Sequence record: PP400780
Source of the DNA: Escherichia phage FL18
DNA: 64,000 bases
Strand: one strand, 5' to 3'
Part shown: one piece after another, positions 5,812 to 61,532 of the stretch
Layout of the letters: each line of letters opens with the position of its first letter
How positions within the stretch are numbered: the stretch's first letter is position 1
Notes under the pieces: generated by a model
The model's database searches: none
What the model was told of the DNA's origin: nothing
The model's input: the letters and a program-made list of their open reading frames with translations, nothing else
Translations under genes and position numbers: made by a program

Positions 5812-6765
5812 ATGACACGTTCACATTACATTGATTATTTTGCAGGTCTTATCGCTAACGTTCATGCCCAACGTGCTTCTGGTTCATTAGGATTTGATGT
5901 TCCACACCGAGTTGTAGTAAGTGGTATTCTTCGCGATTTTGGTACATACACAGGCCAAGAAAATCATATCTGTAAAGATACTCAGAATGCGTATTCTCAT
6001 TCATTAGGGACACTGCTTCAATGGTTCAAACGTTCTCGTTTATTATCTTCGACTGTAGCTCGCGATAACATTAAAAACTTTATGAAGCCGAGCTTTATTA
6101 AATCTGCGACATCTAAAACCGATTTGGTTGAATTCACTATTGTTAATGATGTTAAAAAGACTCATTTGGCTGATTGGTTATCTACCATTCCTGAAACTAA
6201 ATTTGCTGATAAATTTGCTTGTGAATTCAATAACCAAGTGAATATGCTTTTTAAACATTCTCGTAAATTATTTACAGGTGGCGATGGTCGTACAAATAAA
6301 GTTCATGCTAAAGATTGGGTTACTGCAGTATTCAAACCAACCGGTAATGGTAACGCATCATTGTCAATTGATATCCAGGTTCCTTATTACTACTCACGTA
6401 ATCTCGGTACCATGAAAGCCGAAGAAATTAATAAGCGCAACAAAACCGTTCGTTCGCTGTCTTATAAACTTTGTACGATGTTACAGATTATGGATGTTGT
6501 TGAAATGTTCGACGAAACCGAAGATAACGGTTCAATGTTATTCAGTTCTAATATTCGAATTAAGCTGAAGAACCCTAATACATATAAACCTAAGCCTATT
6601 AAAGAACCTAAAGTAGAAAAAGTTGATAACTTAAGAGAAGAACGCGAATATCTCAAATCTCGTCTGAAAGAAGTCGAAGCCCAGATTGCAGAACAGACTA
6701 AATCGTTAAAAGCTCTGAATGCGAAAGCGGATGGTTTACGAAATGCCATTGAGGTATTGAAATGA
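5812..6765 (+). CDS. hypothetical protein with C-terminal coiled-coil-like region
   Basis: 317-aa ORF with GAGG SD; preceded by GTACAACCAAGGATGGTTGGAGTATAAT promoter cassette. Confidence 0.5.
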   Translation: MTRSHYIDYFAGLIANVHAQRASGSLGFDVPHRVVVSGILRDFGTYTGQENHICKDTQNAYSHSLGTLLQWFKRSRLLSSTVARDNIKNFMKPSFIKSATSKTDLVEFTIVNDVKKTHLADWLSTIPETKFADKFACEFNNQVNMLFKHSRKLFTGGDGRTNKVHAKDWVTAVFKPTGNGNASLSIDIQVPYYYSRNLGTMKAEEINKRNKTVRSLSYKLCTMLQIMDVVEMFDETEDNGSMLFSSNIRIKLKNPNTYKPKPIKEPKVEKVDNLREEREYLKSRLKEVEAQIAEQTKSLKALNAKADGLRNAIEVLK

Positions 6766-7076
6766 AAAAGCGTCTATTAGAAGACATTGCAGCTTCAAGT
6801 AATTCCAGTTTAATTAAAATTATTATGGCCGGTGAAGAAGACGATCTGGAAATGCGCGGAAAGATTCATGGTTGTGATGATTATAGCAGCCCTATTAATT
6901 GGAATTCTGTAATGGTCATGGTTGAACGCCGCGAACGTGCTTCTAAAAACGTTCCTAATTGCCCTGAATGTGGAACTGAACAGGTGCAATTGGTCCATTG
7001 GCAGACTAATAATCTTCGTTATAAATGTCGCCATTGTAAACACCGATTTGACCGAGAAGAAAATGACCAAGCGTAA
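6762..7076 (+). CDS. zinc-ribbon protein
   Basis: CPECG ... CRHC paired Cys motifs near C-terminus. Confidence 0.5.
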
Positions 7077-7221
7077 AGAATATATGGAGACTGCTGAAAA
7101 GGCAGTCCGTGAATTAGCAATAGCTTATTATAATGAACATGGTAAATTTCCTGATAGATACAGCGTGCTTAAATCAGCTTTAACTCGTTCATATAAAAAA
7201 TATGCTATCAGAAGTAAGTGA
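7063..7221 (+). CDS. hypothetical small protein (52 aa)
   Basis: in-frame ATG inside ORF-track entry 6922..7221; the upstream part of that entry overlaps the previous gene. Confidence 0.3.
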
Positions 7222-7307
7222 TATTATATACAAACATAAAGAACAAACGGGCCAAAGTCTTGATTACGACGAGACTTTTAAACAAGTACTAGGAATTAAG
7301 GAATAAT

Positions 7308-7571
7308 ATGTTTAAAGTATATGGTTATGATAGCAACATCCATAAATGTGTGTATTGCGATAATGCAAAACGTCTTTTGACCGTGAAGAAACAGCCATTT
7401 GAATTTATCAATATTATGCCGGAAAAAGGTGTTTTTGATGATGAGAAAATTGCTGAGCTTCTGACTAAACTAGGTCGTGATACTCAAATCGGCTTGACAA
7501 TGCCTCAGGTATTTGCTCCTGATGGAAGTCATATTGGTGGATTTGACCAACTGCGAGAATATTTTAAATGA
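7308..7571 (+). CDS. nrdC: glutaredoxin/thioredoxin (T4 NrdC-like)
   Basis: 87 aa, CVYC active-site motif, near-identical to recalled T4 NrdC sequence. Confidence 0.85.
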   Translation: MFKVYGYDSNIHKCVYCDNAKRLLTVKKQPFEFINIMPEKGVFDDEKIAELLTKLGRDTQIGLTMPQVFAPDGSHIGGFDQLREYFK

Positions 7572-7903
7572 ACGATATTGATTTTGCCAAAGCATATAAA
7601 TTTGTAGCAACTCTTCTCGGCCCTGACGCTCCTACTAAGCTTGAAGTTTTAAATTCGATTCCGACTTCATTGGTTCGAGATGCTGAAATATGGACATGGG
7701 ACGACCCAGCTGTTTGTGAAGACCTGTACATTCTGATGAATGACATGATGGTTAAAAAGCCTGAAACAATGGTTACTATTACTGTTGAAGAATATAATCG
7801 CCTACAAGCCATCGAAGAGCTTCTGTGGAATGTTGAATCTGATTTGCCATCTGGGCTAGAATCCTGGGTTGATTATGAAGAGCTCAATAAGCTCCGCGGT
7901 TAA
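7568..7903 (+). CDS. hypothetical protein (111 aa)
   Basis: ORF translationally coupled to nrdC (ATGA overlap). Confidence 0.45.
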   Translation: MNDIDFAKAYKFVATLLGPDAPTKLEVLNSIPTSLVRDAEIWTWDDPAVCEDLYILMNDMMVKKPETMVTITVEEYNRLQAIEELLWNVESDLPSGLESWVDYEELNKLRG

Positions 7904-8004
7904 ACCGTGGTATTCGGCTCGACTGTCTCCCATCGAGCCAGACGTCGAAACAGTTTACAACGACGAAGAAACATGTTATGATGAGCCTTCAATAAATGAA
8001 TTAA

Positions 8005-8202
8005 TTGATATGGAAATGGGAAGAGATTATTATGCAAGTTAAATTATTGTACCGTTTATTAAAAAATGGCAAGCATGATTGGTATTTGCTTATTAAAACC
8101 GATCAGAATTTTTTCTCCGGACACCCATTTACAGTTCGTCCTACTAAACGTCAGCTTCGCAAAGCTAAACGTTCTCATCGTAACTTTTATAACGTTTACT
8201 AA
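8005..8202 (+). CDS. hypothetical small basic protein
   Basis: C-terminal motif VRPTKRQLRKAKRSH resembles C-terminus of ORF 35942..36154 (VRPTKRQIRQEKRKF). Confidence 0.35.
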   Translation: MIWKWEEIIMQVKLLYRLLKNGKHDWYLLIKTDQNFFSGHPFTVRPTKRQLRKAKRSHRNFYNVY

Positions 8203-8204
8203 AT

Positions 8205-8241
8205 TATAAATACCCTTATCTATTTAAGGTAAGGGTTTATC
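8205..8241 (+). promoter_or_regulatory. late promoter TATAAATA plus RBS-sequestering hairpin upstream of gene 49
   Basis: TATAAATA at 8205-8212; inverted repeat ACCCTTA (8212-8218) / TAAGGGT (8230-8236) includes SD AAGGG; ATG at 8242. Confidence 0.5.
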
Positions 8242-8715
8242 ATGTTATTATCAGGCGCAAAATATAAAGAAGAAAAACAAAAATTTTATGATGCACAGAA
8301 TGGTAAGTGTCCTATTTGCCACCGTGAATTAGACCCTGATGTTCAAGGTAACCATCTTGACCACGACCACGAATTAAACGGGCCAAAAGCCGGTAGAGTT
8401 CGTGGATTACTCTGTAATCTGTGCAACGCAGCAGAAGGTCAAATGAAGCATAAGTTCAACCGTTCCGGTCTTAAAGGACGTGGTGTCGACTACCTCGAAT
8501 GGCTTGAAGCTCTTCTTGTTTATTTGAAACAAGATTATTCTGATAATAATATCCATCCTAATTTTGTTCCAGACAAAACTAAAGAGTTCTCAAGACTAGG
8601 TAAAGAGGAAATGATGGCTGAGATGCTTCAAAGAGGATTTGAATATAATGAATCTGACACCAAAACACAGTTAATAACTTCATTTAAGAAGCAGCTTAGA
8701 AAGAGTTTAAAATGA
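8242..8715 (+). CDS. 49: endonuclease VII (Holliday junction resolvase)
   Basis: 157 aa, near-identical to recalled T4 gp49 (MLL.GK.YKEEKQKFYDAQNGKC ... HLDHDHELNGPKAG). Confidence 0.9.
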   Translation: MLLSGAKYKEEKQKFYDAQNGKCPICHRELDPDVQGNHLDHDHELNGPKAGRVRGLLCNLCNAAEGQMKHKFNRSGLKGRGVDYLEWLEALLVYLKQDYSDNNIHPNFVPDKTKEFSRLGKEEMMAEMLQRGFEYNESDTKTQLITSFKKQLRKSLK

Positions 8716-9380
8716 ATGTAGTATATAAACTATCATTTATTAGTAGAATTAATGCTAAAACCCCGCCATATTATTATATTGGAAGTAAAACCAATTGCAC
8801 TTTTGACGGAACGAATATTATTGATAAAAATGGTAAATTTTATTATTCGTCTTCGTCATCTTCCGAATTTCAAAAAGCTTTGTTGAAAGAAACACCGAAA
8901 GTTGAAATATTATATTTTCAATTAGTCGGAGATGAACAAATAACTAGCATTGAAGCTGAATTTCAAAAGAATATAGAAAAAGATATATGGAATAAAGAGT
9001 ATTTTAATTTAGCATATGCTAATGGTCAATTTACAACGTACGGTGTTTCTCCTTCTAAAGAAACTAGAGAAAAGCAATCAATAACCATGATTAAAAGAAA
9101 TCGTAATAAAGGTAAAAATCATGGATTTTATGGAAAGCATCATACTAATTTAGCCAGAAAGAAAATATCAGAAGCTTCTAAAAAATACTGGAAAGAAAAT
9201 CCACATCATGGATTTTCGCACACAAAGGAAGCTAAAATTAAAATTGGAATTTCATCTTCTATCAGGCATAAAGGAAGTGGAAATCCGATGTACGGCGTAA
9301 AACCTTGGAAAACTCCTAGCGTTGTTCCATGGAATTTAGGTAAAATGAAAGAAATGGTAAAACGAGTAAAACATGCATAG
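8712..9380 (+). CDS. Seg-like homing endonuclease (GIY-YIG-like N-terminus, NUMOD-like repeats)
   Basis: VYKLSF ... YYYIGSK motif; repeated K/R-rich helix motifs; GNPMYG; paralogous to ORF 18918..19451. Confidence 0.55.
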   Translation: MNVVYKLSFISRINAKTPPYYYIGSKTNCTFDGTNIIDKNGKFYYSSSSSSEFQKALLKETPKVEILYFQLVGDEQITSIEAEFQKNIEKDIWNKEYFNLAYANGQFTTYGVSPSKETREKQSITMIKRNRNKGKNHGFYGKHHTNLARKKISEASKKYWKENPHHGFSHTKEAKIKIGISSSIRHKGSGNPMYGVKPWKTPSVVPWNLGKMKEMVKRVKHA

Positions 9381-10203
9381 GTATTATATAATTTATAAAA
9401 TAACAAATATAATTAATTCAAAGGAATATATCGGTGCGCATAGCACCGATAACATAAATGATGGTTATATGGGATCAGGAACATTGATTCGTGCCGCTTT
9501 ATTAAAATATGGTAGAAAAAATTTTAATAAAGAAATTTTACATGTTTTTGATAATGAAAAACAAATGTATGATAAAGAAGCTGAACTCGTAACCGAAGAG
9601 TATTGTCTAAAAGAAAATACATATAATATTAAACCTGGTGGAAAAGGTGGAACTGCCTATGAACAGACACTTGAACATCGCCGCAAAAATAGTTTAGCAA
9701 ATAAAGGTAAAAAGAGAACAGAAGAAACTAAAATAGCTATTTCACGTGCTTTAAAGAAATATAAACGTACGCCAGAGCATCAAGCAAATTTAAATAAAGC
9801 CGTAAGCATAGCTATGAAGCGAAAAGATGTTAGAAGTAAATTAGCTGGAGAGCGGTCTGAGAAAGATAAATTACCTATATCAAACGGTGTTAAAAAATAT
9901 TACAATTCTTTGAGTGAAGAAGAACGCGAACTTCATCGCAAGCGAATTATTGAAGGTAAAAAGAATTCTCCCATGTCATTGGAATCTAGACAAAAGCTTT
10001 CAAAAGCTTTAAAAGGACTTCAAGTTGGTTCAAAAAATCCAATGTATGGAAAAATTTCTCCAACTAGCAAAACCGTTTCAGTTGACGGTATTAAATATGA
10101 TTCAATTAAAAAGTGCTCAAATGCCATAAAAGTTTCTAGACATCTTATACTAAAACGCTGTAATTCTACTGATGAAGCTTGGAAAAATTGGATATTATTA
10201 TGA
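9373..10203 (+). CDS. GIY-YIG homing endonuclease (Seg-like)
   Basis: YYIIYKITNIINSKEYIGAHST (GIY ... YIG), downstream N/E residues, NUMOD3-like repeats (TEETKIAISRALK; SLESRQKLSKALKG; NPMYGK). Confidence 0.75.
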   Translation: MHRYYIIYKITNIINSKEYIGAHSTDNINDGYMGSGTLIRAALLKYGRKNFNKEILHVFDNEKQMYDKEAELVTEEYCLKENTYNIKPGGKGGTAYEQTLEHRRKNSLANKGKKRTEETKIAISRALKKYKRTPEHQANLNKAVSIAMKRKDVRSKLAGERSEKDKLPISNGVKKYYNSLSEEERELHRKRIIEGKKNSPMSLESRQKLSKALKGLQVGSKNPMYGKISPTSKTVSVDGIKYDSIKKCSNAIKVSRHLILKRCNSTDEAWKNWILL

Positions 10204-10670
10204 ATTATGACAGAATATACCCGTGTTGCTTTGTGAATGGCCCTGGATGCAGGGTCGTTCTTTTCGTTACAGGTTGTTTGCATAAATGCGAAGGGTGTTA
10301 TAATAAATCAACATGGAATGCTAGAAATGGTGTTCCATTCACTGGTGAAACACTAGAACAATTAATTGAATGTTTGAATAATGATTATATAGAAGGATTG
10401 ACTATAACCGGAGGTGACCCTCTTTATCCTGATAACAGAGACGTGATTCACTCTGTGGTTCAAACTATTAAAAATCTTTATCCCAATAAAAGCATTTGGT
10501 TGTGGACAGGATATAAGTTTGAAGATATTAAACAACTAGAAATGCTTAAATATGTTGATGTTATTATTGATGGGAAGTATGAGAAAAATCTTCCGACTAA
10601 AAAGCTGTGGCGAGGATCAGATAATCAGCGACTTTGGTCAAATACCGATGTGGTGTGGAAACATGATTAA
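10200..10670 (+). CDS. nrdG: anaerobic ribonucleotide reductase activating protein (radical SAM)
   Basis: 156 aa from ATG at 10200 (MNYDRIYPCCFVNGPGCRVVLFVTGCLHKCEGCYN); matches recalled T4 NrdG. Confidence 0.85.
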   Translation: MNYDRIYPCCFVNGPGCRVVLFVTGCLHKCEGCYNKSTWNARNGVPFTGETLEQLIECLNNDYIEGLTITGGDPLYPDNRDVIHSVVQTIKNLYPNKSIWLWTGYKFEDIKQLEMLKYVDVIIDGKYEKNLPTKKLWRGSDNQRLWSNTDVVWKHD

Positions 10671-10785
10671 ATTGAATTATATTATGGATACTATAAATGA
10701 TATGATTTTTCATTTTGGTCCAGAATTTTATTCGCAGTATAGTTTAGTGCTTATCAATGCTTGGTTAATCAATTAAGGGTAAAAT

Positions 10786-13492: not shown

Positions 13493-13519
13493 ATCTATGA
13501 ATTGAGCTAAGAGGTGAAA

Positions 13520-14077
13520 ATGTCAGAAACTAAGCCTAAATATAATTACGTAAACAATAAAGAGCTTTTACAAGCTATTATTGATTGGAAAACAGAATTA
13601 GCAAATAATAAAGACCCAAATAAAGTAGTTCGTCAGAATGATACTATCGGATTAGCCATTATGCTTATTGCAGAAGGCTTATCTAAACGTTTCAACTTTT
13701 CAGGATACACCCAGTCTTGGAAACAAGAGATGATTGCAGATGGGATTGAAGCCTCTATTAAGGGACTTCATAATTTCGACGAAACTAAGTACAATAACCC
13801 GCATGCATACATAACTCGAGCTTGTTTTAATGCTTTTGTCCAACGTATCAAAAAAGAACGTAAGGAAGTTGCAAAGAAATATAGTTACTTCGTTCATAAT
13901 GTCTACGACAGTCATGACGATGATATGGTAGCGTTGGTAGATGAAACGTTTATTCAAGACATCTACGATAAAATGACGCATTATGAAGAATCCGCTTATA
14001 AAGCTCCTGGGGCTGAAAAGAAGGAAGTTGTTAGCGATTCGCCTAGTTTGGATTTTTTATATGAGGACGACAATTGA
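13520..14077 (+). CDS. 55: late-transcription sigma factor gp55
   Basis: [33 protein letters not shown] ... near-identical to recalled T4 gp55; ATG at 13520 with GAGG SD (ORF-track start 13514 is an upstream GTG). Confidence 0.9.
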
Positions 14078-19455: not shown

Positions 19456-19818
19456 ATGTTTAACGATAGAGATTTTGCTTTAAAATTTAAAGATATAATG
19501 AATTCTCCTAATGTTAAAGATAAAATAAAAATATCTAAAACATTGTATTGGTCTAAACCTGAAAATAGAGCAAAGGCCTCTATCGCAGCTTCGAAAAGAA
19601 ATGCAACCAAAGAATTTAAGGATAAATTCAGAAAATCTAAAGCTAGAGGTACATGGATATTTCATGAACAAAAATTAAAGGAATTGTGGATTGCTTTAGG
19701 AAAACCAAGTTATATTACATTTAGAAAACATGCAATTCAGCATGGTTTTAATGATGAATCATACCAAGGTGCTATCCGGTCTTGGACAAATTATTATGCT
19801 AATAGGAAACCTAAATGA
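19456..19818 (+). CDS. basic DNA-binding-like protein; possible C-terminal part of split homing endonuclease
   Basis: starts 4 nt after the stop of 18918..19451 in a different frame; K/R-rich. Confidence 0.4.
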   Translation: MFNDRDFALKFKDIMNSPNVKDKIKISKTLYWSKPENRAKASIAASKRNATKEFKDKFRKSKARGTWIFHEQKLKELWIALGKPSYITFRKHAIQHGFNDESYQGAIRSWTNYYANRKPK

Positions 19819-20501
19819 AACTTAGCCGTGAAACCGTAAATATTCTGAAAAACTTCGCTTCTATTAACTCTGGCATTCTGCTGAGTCAAGGTAAATTTAT
19901 TATGACTCGTGCAGTTAATGGCACCACTTATGCGGAAGCAAATATCTCTGATGAAATTGATTTTGACGTAGCACTTTATGATTTGAATAGCTTCTTAAGC
20001 ATTTTGAGTCTAGTGTCTGATGATGCTGAAATTTCAATGCACACTGATGGCAATATTAAAATTGCAGATACACGTTCCACAGTTTATTGGCCTGCCGCTG
20101 ACAAGAGCACCATTGTTTTTCCTAATAAGCCAATTCAATTCCCAGTGGCTTCTGTGATTACTGAAATTAAAGCTGAAGACCTTCAACAATTGCTTCGAGT
20201 TTCACGTGGACTTCAGATTGATACAATTGCTATTACAAATAAAGATGGTAAAATTGTTATCAATGGCTATAATAAAGTTGAAGATTCCGGACTAACTCGT
20301 CCTAAGTATTCTTTGACTCTTACTGATTATGACGGTTCTAATAACTTTAACTTCGTAATCAATATGGCTAATATGAAAATCCAGCCAGGTAACTATAAAG
20401 TAATGTTGTGGGGAGCTGGTGATAAAGTTGCAGCTAAGTTTGAAAGCTCTCAAGTAAGTTATGTTATTGCGATGGAAGCCGATTCTACTCACGACTTCTA
20501 A
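19815..20501 (+). CDS. 45: sliding clamp gp45
   Basis: 228 aa, near-identical to recalled T4 gp45 (MKLS..T...LKNFA.INSGI ... EADSTHDF). Confidence 0.95.
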   Translation: MKLSRETVNILKNFASINSGILLSQGKFIMTRAVNGTTYAEANISDEIDFDVALYDLNSFLSILSLVSDDAEISMHTDGNIKIADTRSTVYWPAADKSTIVFPNKPIQFPVASVITEIKAEDLQQLLRVSRGLQIDTIAITNKDGKIVINGYNKVEDSGLTRPKYSLTLTDYDGSNNFNFVINMANMKIQPGNYKVMLWGAGDKVAAKFESSQVSYVIAMEADSTHDF

Positions 20502-40461: not shown

Positions 40462-40469
40462 TATAAATA
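40462..40469 (+). promoter_or_regulatory. late promoter TATAAATA upstream of soc
   Basis: exact TATAAATA; AAGGAG SD at 40489-40494; ATG at 40501. Confidence 0.55.
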
Positions 40470-40500
40470 CACCTGTAATTAAACAACAAAGGAGTTAATT

Positions 40501-40737
40501 ATGGGTGGTTATGTAAACATCAAAACCTTTACGCATCCTGCTGGTGAAGGTAAAGAAGTTAAAGGTATGGAAGTTTCTGTACCGTTTGAGATTTATTCAA
40601 ACGAACATCGGATTGCAGATTCTCATTACCAAATCTTTCCATCAGAAAAGGCAGCTTATTCTACTGTAGTTTCTGATGCAGCTGACTGGAAAACTAAGAA
40701 CGCTGCAATGTTTACCCCTACACCAGTAAGCGGTTAA
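40501..40737 (+). CDS. soc: small outer capsid protein Soc
   Basis: 78 aa; GYVNIKTF ... HYQIFPSEKAAYSTV matches recalled T4 Soc. Confidence 0.8.
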   Translation: MGGYVNIKTFTHPAGEGKEVKGMEVSVPFEIYSNEHRIADSHYQIFPSEKAAYSTVVSDAADWKTKNAAMFTPTPVSG

Positions 40738-46099: not shown

Positions 46100-46777
46100 A
46101 TGAGCACTGATGTTATTATAGATTTTGAAACATTCGGCAATACATCAAAAGCGGCTGTTATTGACCTTGCGGTTATTGCATATAATTCAGACCCTGAAGT
46201 TGTTGAATCATTTGAAGAACTTGTTCAACGAGGTAAGCGAATTAAATTTAATTTAGCTTCTCAAAAAGGGAAGCGAGTTTTCGCTAAATCCACTATGAAA
46301 TGGTGGAAAGAACAATCAGCAGAAGCACGTAAAAACCTGGCCCCGTCTGAAGACGATGTCACTACGCTTGAAGGCATTAAAATCTTTTTAGACTATTGCC
46401 GAGCTAATAAAGTTGACCAATGGAAATCACAGATGTGGTGCCGTGGTATGAGCTTTGACTTCCCGATCTTGGTCGATTTGATTCGTGACCTCTATCGTGA
46501 TGAAGGTGTTCTTGAACCAGATATTGATACTGATAAATTAGAACCTGTTAAATTCTGGGCTCAACGTGATATTCGTACGGCAATCGAAGCTTACTCGTTG
46601 ACACGAGGAGTAAGTATGTGTCCATTACCGATGGGTACGCTAAAAGGATTCGTTGCCCATGATAGTATTCATGATTGTGCTAAAGATATTTTGATGTTAA
46701 AATATGCTCAGCGTTATGCGCTTGGCCTTGAAGATGTCCCTGAGAATCCTGACCCGTTAAGTGTAAAACAGCGATAA
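46100..46777 (+). CDS. dexA: exonuclease A (DexA-like 3'-5' exonuclease)
   Basis: 225 aa; N-terminal IIDFETFG (DEDD-type motif) ; synteny after dda. Confidence 0.7.
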   Translation: MSTDVIIDFETFGNTSKAAVIDLAVIAYNSDPEVVESFEELVQRGKRIKFNLASQKGKRVFAKSTMKWWKEQSAEARKNLAPSEDDVTTLEGIKIFLDYCRANKVDQWKSQMWCRGMSFDFPILVDLIRDLYRDEGVLEPDIDTDKLEPVKFWAQRDIRTAIEAYSLTRGVSMCPLPMGTLKGFVAHDSIHDCAKDILMLKYAQRYALGLEDVPENPDPLSVKQR

Positions 46778-46781
46778 AATC

Positions 46782-46813
46782 AGTTTACAACCAAGGACGG
46801 TTGGAGTATAATC
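46782..46813 (+). promoter_or_regulatory. T4-type early promoter cassette GTTTACAACCAAGGACGGTTGGAGTATAAT
   Basis: near-identical copies at 5755-5783 and 47339-47371. Confidence 0.55.
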
Positions 46814-46843
46814 TTTCTATCTTAACCAAACAGGAAAAACATT

Positions 46844-47338
46844 ATGAATATCAATACTACGGCTACTTACATCCTGAAAGACGAAAAACAAATTAACTGG
46901 TATGGTGCTTCAGTGCGAGCTTATGAAAAGTTTTGTGAAATTTTAGGTGCCACTCAAGGTAATAGTTTCACTATTGTTAACTTCATCAAACAAGCTGAAG
47001 GCCCTTGGTTATTCTTAGAAATTAAAAATTCATATGGTACAATTTCTACTACCGCCCTTCCAAGCACCGACTTTGAACTGTTGATTGAAGAAGTAGAACC
47101 CGTTAAAGATATCTGTATTGATATGGATATCGCTTGTATGTACGGTACTCTGATTAAGCCTATTGAGCCTACTGATTTGTTGTGTAAAGCTGTTTCAATT
47201 CGACGTCCGTTCGCAGGTCCAGTAAATGGATGGGTGACTGATCAGTGGATTGAAGACGGTGTTGAACTTCTGAACGTTGTTCATGCAGGTGATTTTAGTG
47301 TAGTTCCACGTAGTGCTGTGGTTAATATCCTTAATTAA
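46844..47338 (+). CDS. hypothetical protein, member 1 of tandem paralog family
   Basis: C-terminus DQWIEDGVELLNVVHAGDFSVVP shared with two downstream ORFs. Confidence 0.55.
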   Translation: MNINTTATYILKDEKQINWYGASVRAYEKFCEILGATQGNSFTIVNFIKQAEGPWLFLEIKNSYGTISTTALPSTDFELLIEEVEPVKDICIDMDIACMYGTLIKPIEPTDLLCKAVSIRRPFAGPVNGWVTDQWIEDGVELLNVVHAGDFSVVPRSAVVNILN

Positions 47339-60844: not shown

Positions 60845-61501
60845 TTATTTAGCCCTTCCTAATATTCTGGCCGCCTGAGCACATATTGATTCAAGGCGGT
60901 CATTACTTATATGATCATTTCTATACCAGTACATGGTTATCGTTCCAGCATAGATATTATCCAAATTAAAATATGGACAACTGTACATGTAGTTTATTTC
61001 GGGAGTAGGCTTTTTAGTTGGTAAAAAAGCAAATTTTGAGTTGGAATAATAATGACGTCCATTTAAATGAACTGTATATTCATCCATAGTTTTATCAACA
61101 GGATATCCTCCAAGTGATTTTTCACTTATTGTTGAAGGTAATTTTCCTTCGTATGCTATAATATCAACAAAATAGTTTAAGTTTTTAGGGCGGAAAGAAT
61201 ACACCGCACTAAAGTCTGCCTCAGATGATATATGAACTATCTGGAGTTGTTCCAGGGCGACAGATTCAAAGCGTGCAGTTCTTTCCTTTTCAATAATTTC
61301 ACGGTATGTTTCATACTTTGATTGCTTATAGTACTCAAAGAAACTATCTCCCCTATACCAAACAATCGCCATTATAAACAAAAGAATTACGACAGCTACC
61401 CGGGAAGCAAGAACTTTCCCGGTAGCGTTATCTTTGAACAAGCGATCTAGAACACCAAATAGAATATCAGAGGGCGAAAATGATATTCTAGGTGCTGCCA
61501 T
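60845..61501 (-). CDS. t: holin T
   Basis: 218 aa; MAAPRISFSPSDILFGVLDRLFKDNATGKVLASR ... single TM then large periplasmic domain; matches recalled T4 gp t; AAGGAGGG SD. Confidence 0.9.
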   Translation of the reverse strand: MAAPRISFSPSDILFGVLDRLFKDNATGKVLASRVAVVILLFIMAIVWYRGDSFFEYYKQSKYETYREIIEKERTARFESVALEQLQIVHISSEADFSAVYSFRPKNLNYFVDIIAYEGKLPSTISEKSLGGYPVDKTMDEYTVHLNGRHYYSNSKFAFLPTKKPTPEINYMYSCPYFNLDNIYAGTITMYWYRNDHISNDRLESICAQAARILGRAK

Positions 61502-61532
61502 AGACCCTCCTTTTAAGGATATTTATTCAAAA

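Follow-up and report, generated by a model that had tools for sequence, protein, structure and literature searches.

The leader of gene 49 in Escherichia phage FL18 is very probably a T4-type timing switch, in which a late promoter is embedded in a hairpin that covers the ribosome binding site, orthologous to the one of phage T4. The mechanism is already known from T4 and the leader is its orthologue. A textbook mechanism of 1988 is found intact in FL18 and opens no new biological question. What our analysis adds is depth: the architecture is conserved, with covariation, in very distant T4-like phages, i.e. far deeper than reported for gene e. The covariation support is unusually clean and could seed an RNA family. 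All coordinates given below refer to the analysed stretch of 64,000 nucleotides of the FL18 sequence (record PP400780), which we call the window.

Gene 49 (8242..8715, + strand) encodes recombination endonuclease VII, a protein of 157 aa matching PF02945 (Endonuclease_7, 1.2e-19), PF09124 (Endonuc-dimeris, 9.2e-32) and phrog_423 (2.4e-60). FL18 is T4-like, and its nearest record is that of Escherichia phage JM17 (Mosigvirus), with 98.7-99.6% identity around the gene 49 locus. The initial annotation of this DNA had placed an exact TATAAATA at positions 8205-8212, and these coordinates are correct when checked against the + strand. The motif is an exact match to the T4-type late promoter box, whose reader would be the gp55-RNA polymerase. 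In T4 the late box spans -13 to -6 (PMC1524935), and T4-type late promoters consist of this 8-bp box, which accepts an A at -13 and precedes the start by about one helical turn (PMC1524935, PMC2988020). A late box at -13 to -6 puts the predicted transcription start at A8218 (+ strand), 6 nt past the box, which falls inside the range of 8218-8222 proposed earlier for the late start. The base at the predicted +1 is an A in 40 of the 44 distinct gp49 leaders described below, and columns 14-15 of alignment A1 (A, T), which are invariant, coincide with the predicted +1 and +2. Right after the box comes CCCTTATCTATTT, that is CCC and then an A/T-rich stretch; this CCC, which the T4 gene 49 promoter shares, departs from the A/T-richness that late promoters usually show just past the box (PMC2988020). 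A mapped T4 start near coordinate 46879 had no occurrence in one supplement file of a T4 NAD-cap/dRNA-seq preprint. We infer from these sequence features that the gene 49 late promoter is active in FL18 and that its +1 is A8218.

Exact copies of TATAAATA are depleted in the window, which has two of them against 7.8 +/- 3.0 expected, as it should be if selection acts against stray late promoters among early genes. Both copies precede late genes, 49 and soc, that are embedded in the early region. Taken alone, the 8-mer is not significant; its weight before gene 49 comes from its position and its conservation. Trans-acting components of the system are also encoded in the window: a homologue of gene 55 (13514..14077, + strand; phrog_234 'late sigma transcription factor', 3.3e-68), the late sigma factor recognising TATAAATA, and a homologue of gene 45 (19815..20501, + strand; phrog_223, 1e-84), the sliding clamp that activates late transcription (PMC2988020).

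The box leads directly into a hairpin. It had been described as an inverted repeat, ACCCTTA/TAAGGGT, at 8212-8236, and the coordinates of the two halves stand (8212-8218 and 8230-8236), but a stem of 7 bp closing a loop of 11 nt is only the outer part of the structure. The gene 49 helix has 10 bp, pairing 8212-8221 with 8227-8236, includes one U-G pair, closes a loop of 5 nt and has a predicted energy of -12.9 kcal/mol. Its 5' arm, ACCCUUAUCU (ACCCTTATCT in DNA; 8212..8221, + strand), begins on the last base of the box, and most of it precedes the predicted +1. Folding then places a loop AUUUA (ATTTA in DNA) at 8222..8226 (+ strand) and the 3' arm, AGGUAAGGGU (AGGTAAGGGT in DNA), at 8227..8236 (+ strand). 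As had been claimed, this 3' arm carries the Shine-Dalgarno (SD) sequence of the ATG at 8242-8244: UAAGGG occupies 8230..8235 (+ strand), its core ends 6-7 nt ahead of the AUG, and every base of the SD zone is paired in the MFE structure (SD paired fraction of 1.0). The AUG itself is unpaired in the predicted fold of FL18. The 41-nt element is more stable than its shuffled versions (z = -3.5; 0/200 shuffles as stable), and its hairpin remains the centroid structure in contexts of 55-141 nt (z = -1.9 to -2.6).

The two kinds of transcripts should thus differ in structure, because the 5' arm, being mostly upstream of +1, would be found only on read-through RNA. An RNA starting at 8205 or farther upstream is predicted to form the full helix with 100% of the SD paired, in agreement with the proposal that long transcripts mask the ribosome binding site. 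For the late RNA, the initial annotation proposed that the 5' arm would be missing. The predicted folds support this: 6 of the 10 pairs are lost and only -1.5 kcal/mol is left, although 4 pairs could still form. The RNA from 8218 is nevertheless predicted to be essentially unstructured, leaving the SD without stable structure.

The T4 genome (NC_000866) carries gene 49 at 46382-46855 of the complement, with the leader AATAAATACCCTTATCTATTTAAGGTAAGGGTTTATTATG. The suggested match with the translational control of this gene is well founded, as stem, loop and spacing are identical in T4 and reviews list gene 49 in the same class. The 10-bp stem and the AUUUA loop are the same base for base, the last A of the box is 29 nt from the AUG in both phages, and the predicted +1 is the same. 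Between box and AUG, FL18 differs from T4 at just two positions, 8205 and 8241. The former makes the box the exact consensus TATAAATA in FL18 whereas T4 has the A(-13) variant AATAAATA; the latter places a C at -1 in FL18 and a U in T4. Because of these changes at -13 and -1, the outer helix of T4, which reaches the AUG, is missing in FL18, and the FL18 structure is weaker by 3.4 kcal/mol (-12.9 vs -16.3 kcal/mol). Barth, Powell, Trupin and Mosig reportedly described in 1988 (Genetics 120:329) early long transcripts, a late promoter in the hairpin and two nested products for the T4 gene. The A(-13) variant is found in 9 of 50 T4 late promoters listed in PMC2988020. According to PMC3014915, gene 49 belongs with e, soc and I-TevI among T4 mRNAs having the SD and/or the AUG sequestered in a helix. 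A review of such sequestration cites Barth et al. 1988 and prints "39", though the cited paper concerns gene 49 (PMC2988022). With the same gene and a homologous leader, the FL18 element qualifies, at the level of sequence, as the orthologue of the T4 gene 49 leader.

The gene upstream differs, a 49.1-like ORF in FL18 and pin in T4. In T4 and many relatives the protease-inhibitor gene pin lies directly upstream of gene 49, and it is absent in both the FL18 window and JM17. The DUF7279 ORF at 8032-8202 adjoins the gene 49 leader in its place and the leader is intact from the box on (region compared: window 8203-8241 vs T4 46856-46896).

To place this leader among its relatives, we used two scans of viral contigs, which gave 79 distinct loci with gp49 relatives and 44 distinct T4-like leaders, with gp49 identity in the T4-like set going down to about 37%. 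The identified carriers are T4-like coliphages, the Citrobacter phages CF1 and Moon, Klebsiella phages, Serratia phage PS2, Proteus phage phiP4-3, Morganella phage MP1 and the Aeromonas phages Aeh1 and PX29. Other distant leaders presumably come from the lineages of RB43, 44RR, Acj9 and Acinetobacter phage 133. All 44 distinct leaders have a TAAATA box, with its last A 17-33 nt before the start codon, and in all 44 a hairpin covering the SD follows or flanks this box. The 8-mer reads A, G, T or C before ATAAATA, or CTAAATA in some distant lineages such as Aeh1, and boxes of the latter type fit the late consensus reported for those lineages (PMC1524935). The loss of structure in the late RNA is also general: over 51 gp49 leaders the median predicted energy of the hairpin goes from -14.1 to -1.4 kcal/mol in the late leader, and among the 44 distinct leaders the median loss in the late RNA is 9 of 13 pairs. 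The sequence of the stem, on the other hand, is highly variable, as these 44 leaders have 26 different heptamers right after the box (e.g. CCCTTAT, GGTTCAT, GAGTCAT, ATGACAC, CCTCTAT and TATCAAA). We left out one locus with an uncertain start codon (L051) and the most distant endonuclease VII-domain matches (L066, L069, L075, L077-L082), which are without a TAAATA box or a comparable hairpin and look like non-T4-like contexts. One locus, L060 (1440-1494), has an alternative geometry with the same logic: the TATAAATA box is in the hairpin loop, the 5' arm TTCCTCCAATA is upstream of the box, and the late RNA loses all 15 pairs of the stem.

We tested covariation on the 9 pairs of the core helix in 28 distinct leaders. 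In a MAFFT alignment, 89.6% of the cells are paired against 69.2% in shuffled data, a value reached by 0/500 shuffles, and controls in which the helix was slid have 39-52% paired cells. Compensatory double changes affect 6 of the 9 pairs in this alignment, with 55 such cells against 16.8 in shuffled data. Four divergent leaders (L035, L036, L037 and L044) are out of register with their own stems in the MAFFT alignment, making the pair counts slightly conservative. A CM-fitted alignment mends this partly; it gives 91.2% paired cells against 69.9% (again reached by 0/500 shuffles) and compensatory changes in 7 of the 9 pairs, figures to be read knowing that such an alignment leans towards structure. 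Covariation across phages this distant points to selection on the helix and not on its sequence.

The architecture is also specific to gene 49. We defined it by a TAAATA box, a fold of at most -9 kcal/mol over -45 to +6 and pairing of at least half of the SD zone. This combination is found in 48 of 51 gp49 leaders, the three failures being marginal, and in none of the other gene starts (0/219 in the same loci and 0/82 in the window, i.e. 0/301 in total). The covariance model R1 matches the window only at 8205-8247, with 44.8 bits; it found no second copy of the gene 49 element in the window, the next match having 15.8 bits (E = 1.4). An Rfam scan of 7900-8600 returned sub-threshold noise only, with scores of up to 23 bits where the gathering scores are 90-140. 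Hence, the gene 49 switch is in no Rfam family and, so far as the literature examined shows, it is uncatalogued as a family.

These comparisons also bear on other ways of reading the leader. The hairpin could mainly serve the early operon upstream, as an intrinsic (rho-independent) terminator or by stabilising its 3' end, and would then overlap the SD only incidentally. Like an intrinsic terminator, it is a G+C-containing stem-loop in an intergenic spacer. The same hairpin is annotated as a TransTermHP terminator, overlapping the start of gene 49, in Escherichia phage vB_EcoM_SA21RB (OL960580.1; L047:713-749), and in the T4 clade a moderately U-rich stretch follows the stem (UUUAUCAU / UUUAUUAU). 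Yet, our terminator scan did not call the gene 49 hairpin, and the U-tract is not conserved, with just one of the 44 distinct leaders having at least 5 U within 8 nt past the stem. What is conserved is the overlap between box and stem and the inclusion of the SD, which a terminator does not need. Unlike an intrinsic terminator, the gene 49 hairpin overlaps a promoter box and the SD and runs into the start codon, and in most clades the stem abuts the AUG directly. Furthermore, in T4 and many relatives nrdD, which is missing from the FL18 window, directly follows gene 49 on the same strand with an overlapping start, and in those phages this speaks against the leader being a strong terminator. 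Lacking a conserved U-tract and a call in the scan, termination was rejected as the main function, and we regard this reading as quite improbable. The label given to this hairpin in SA21RB is probably a mis-annotation, and the gene 49 hairpin should not be labelled a terminator in genome annotations.

One might also speculate that the helix is not a self-sufficient mask of the ribosome binding site but the operator of a translational repressor protein, or a site processed by an endoribonuclease. At other T4 genes, translation is indeed repressed by proteins and mRNAs are processed (PMC3014915), and the A-U that is invariant close to the stem apex could in principle serve recognition. But these invariant A-T positions are also where the late transcript is predicted to begin (+1 and +2), and the sequence of the stem is almost freely replaceable, with 26 variants and compensatory changes, which fits poorly with sequence-specific recognition by a protein. 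The reviews examined name no repressor or RNase factor for gene 49 (PMC3014915, PMC2988022). We find this reading less probable still than a terminator. Finally, an A/T-rich 8-mer and a short inverted repeat might co-occur by chance in an A/T-rich spacer. Given 7.8 expected copies, one TATAAATA in an A/T-rich sequence of 64 kb would indeed be unsurprising. This is at odds with the depletion of the motif in the window and with the position of both copies before late genes. It is also at odds with the presence of the architecture in 44/44 distinct leaders against 0/301 control gene starts, with the covariation and with the failure of all 200 shuffles to fold as well. The comparative data effectively refute the chance reading, whose probability we consider negligible.

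The promoter-in-hairpin switch requires early transcripts that run into gene 49. From 5812 to 8202 the + strand carries an unbroken series of ORFs, and a consensus scan found no terminator-like sites on the + strand between 6532 and 10235; together, these observations make read-through into gene 49 plausible. Middle-promoter-like motifs are found upstream of gene 49 and are pattern matches only, not evidence. In the early and middle periods, polymerases reading through from nrdC to the 49.1-like ORFs would produce long RNAs with both arms. In such RNAs the 10-bp hairpin would bury the SD of gene 49, leading to poor binding of the 30S subunit and to little endonuclease VII. Repression might be incomplete at this stage. 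The upstream neighbour, a 49.1-like ORF encoding DUF7279 (8032..8202, same + strand), has its stop at 8200-8202, 9 nt before the 5' arm. Ribosomes terminating there would extend as far as the foot of the stem and could melt it, and early repression may thus be leaky. After the onset of replication, the polymerase modified by gp55, gp33 and gp45 would initiate at TATAAATA, whose last base is also the first of the 5' arm. Beginning at about A8218, the late RNA would lack 6 of the 10 pairs, and with its SD open it would be translated. As a result, an enzyme that cleaves DNA junctions would be restricted to the packaging period. Branched DNA is the substrate of endonuclease VII, and late-only translation might be adaptive because the enzyme is presumably harmful while the genome replicates through recombination intermediates. 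Both the read-through RNA and the extent of translational control are predictions for FL18.

Other T4 genes carry comparable devices. Gene soc encodes a protein of 78 aa in the window (40462-40737 with its leader, + strand; Soc, Pfam PF16855, 1.3e-19), with a box at 40462-40469, 31 nt before the ATG at 40501. Like gene 49, soc is a late gene in an early unit and its late RNA is without the 5' arm (Macdonald, Kutter & Mosig 1984); in the window its long leader folds at -13.3 kcal/mol against -2.5 kcal/mol for the late leader, according to prediction. Unlike that of gene 49, the soc helix covers the AUG and has the SD in the loop, and the stem sequences are unrelated. The lysozyme gene e (McPheeters et al. 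1986) shares with gene 49 a helix sequestering the SD on early read-through RNA, with late promoters lying within it, and differs in having two late promoters. A 100-fold effect is reported for the gene e leader in PMC3014915, where the structure is given as restricted to close T-even relatives and absent in Aeh1, 44RR, 25 and 31. The architecture of gene 49, in contrast, reaches Aeh1, PX29 and other distant contigs. The hairpins of I-TevI, I-TevII, I-TevIII, segB and the Aeh1 mobE follow the same promoter-in-hairpin logic as that of gene 49 (PMC2988022), and those of I-TevI and mobE were tested by mutation (PMC2988022, PMC3014915). Yet, these homing endonucleases are selfish nucleases whereas gene 49 is a core recombination and packaging gene, and the control of I-TevI is tied to intron splicing, unlike that of gene 49.

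The start of the protein itself may distinguish FL18 from T4. The T4 RefSeq record annotates a second, nested product of gene 49 from the GTG at codon 53. In FL18 this codon (window 8398-8400) is GTT, as it is in most relatives, and GTG is found only in T4 and a few loci. The T4 lineage may thus be alone in making the nested 12-kDa product. Nearly all loci have an ATG at codon 68 of gene 49, preceded by GAAGG, but this sequence is under coding constraint. Taken together, the consensus box, the absence of the outer helix and the lack of an internal GTG start raise the idea that gp49 of FL18 might be purely late and full-length. We put forward tentatively, and with slightly more doubt than confidence, that the gene 49 promoter-in-hairpin is the most deeply conserved cis-regulatory RNA switch of its kind in T4-like phages and that gp49 in FL18 is perhaps purely late and full-length.

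Downstream of gene 49, nrdD is missing. A tblastx comparison of the T4 nrdD region with the whole window gave no match to nrdD, and no phage record covers at least 80% of 8700-10700. The window matches JM17 at 99.6% up to position 9319 (codon 205 in a homing-endonuclease gene of the GIY-YIG/NUMOD3 type), and from about 9305 it matches the arrangement 'nrdD 3' end, segD-like endonuclease, nrdG' of RB3/EC128-type phages. The region 8712-10203 (+ strand) looks like a deletion of the C-terminus of the endonuclease and of nearly all nrdD, judging from these alignments. The activase gene nrdG is kept, at 10179-10670.

Elsewhere in the window, promoters and hairpins are combined in other ways. The holin gene t (60845-61501, - strand; Phage_holin_T, 4.5e-118) has a AATAAATA at 61520-61527 (- strand), 18 nt before its start. 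This is an ordinary late promoter with a small predicted stem only (-4.5 kcal/mol). At the gene starts 35435, 36957, 42319 and 48354 (+ strand), early-type -10 boxes (such as TGTTATTATAGAT and TGATATTATAAC) lie between the arms of hairpins with predicted energies of -10.6 to -16.9 kcal/mol, and the 3' arm of each of these hairpins holds the SD of the next gene. The predicted folds suggest that early promoters may share the rule by which only the promoter-proximal transcript is translated.
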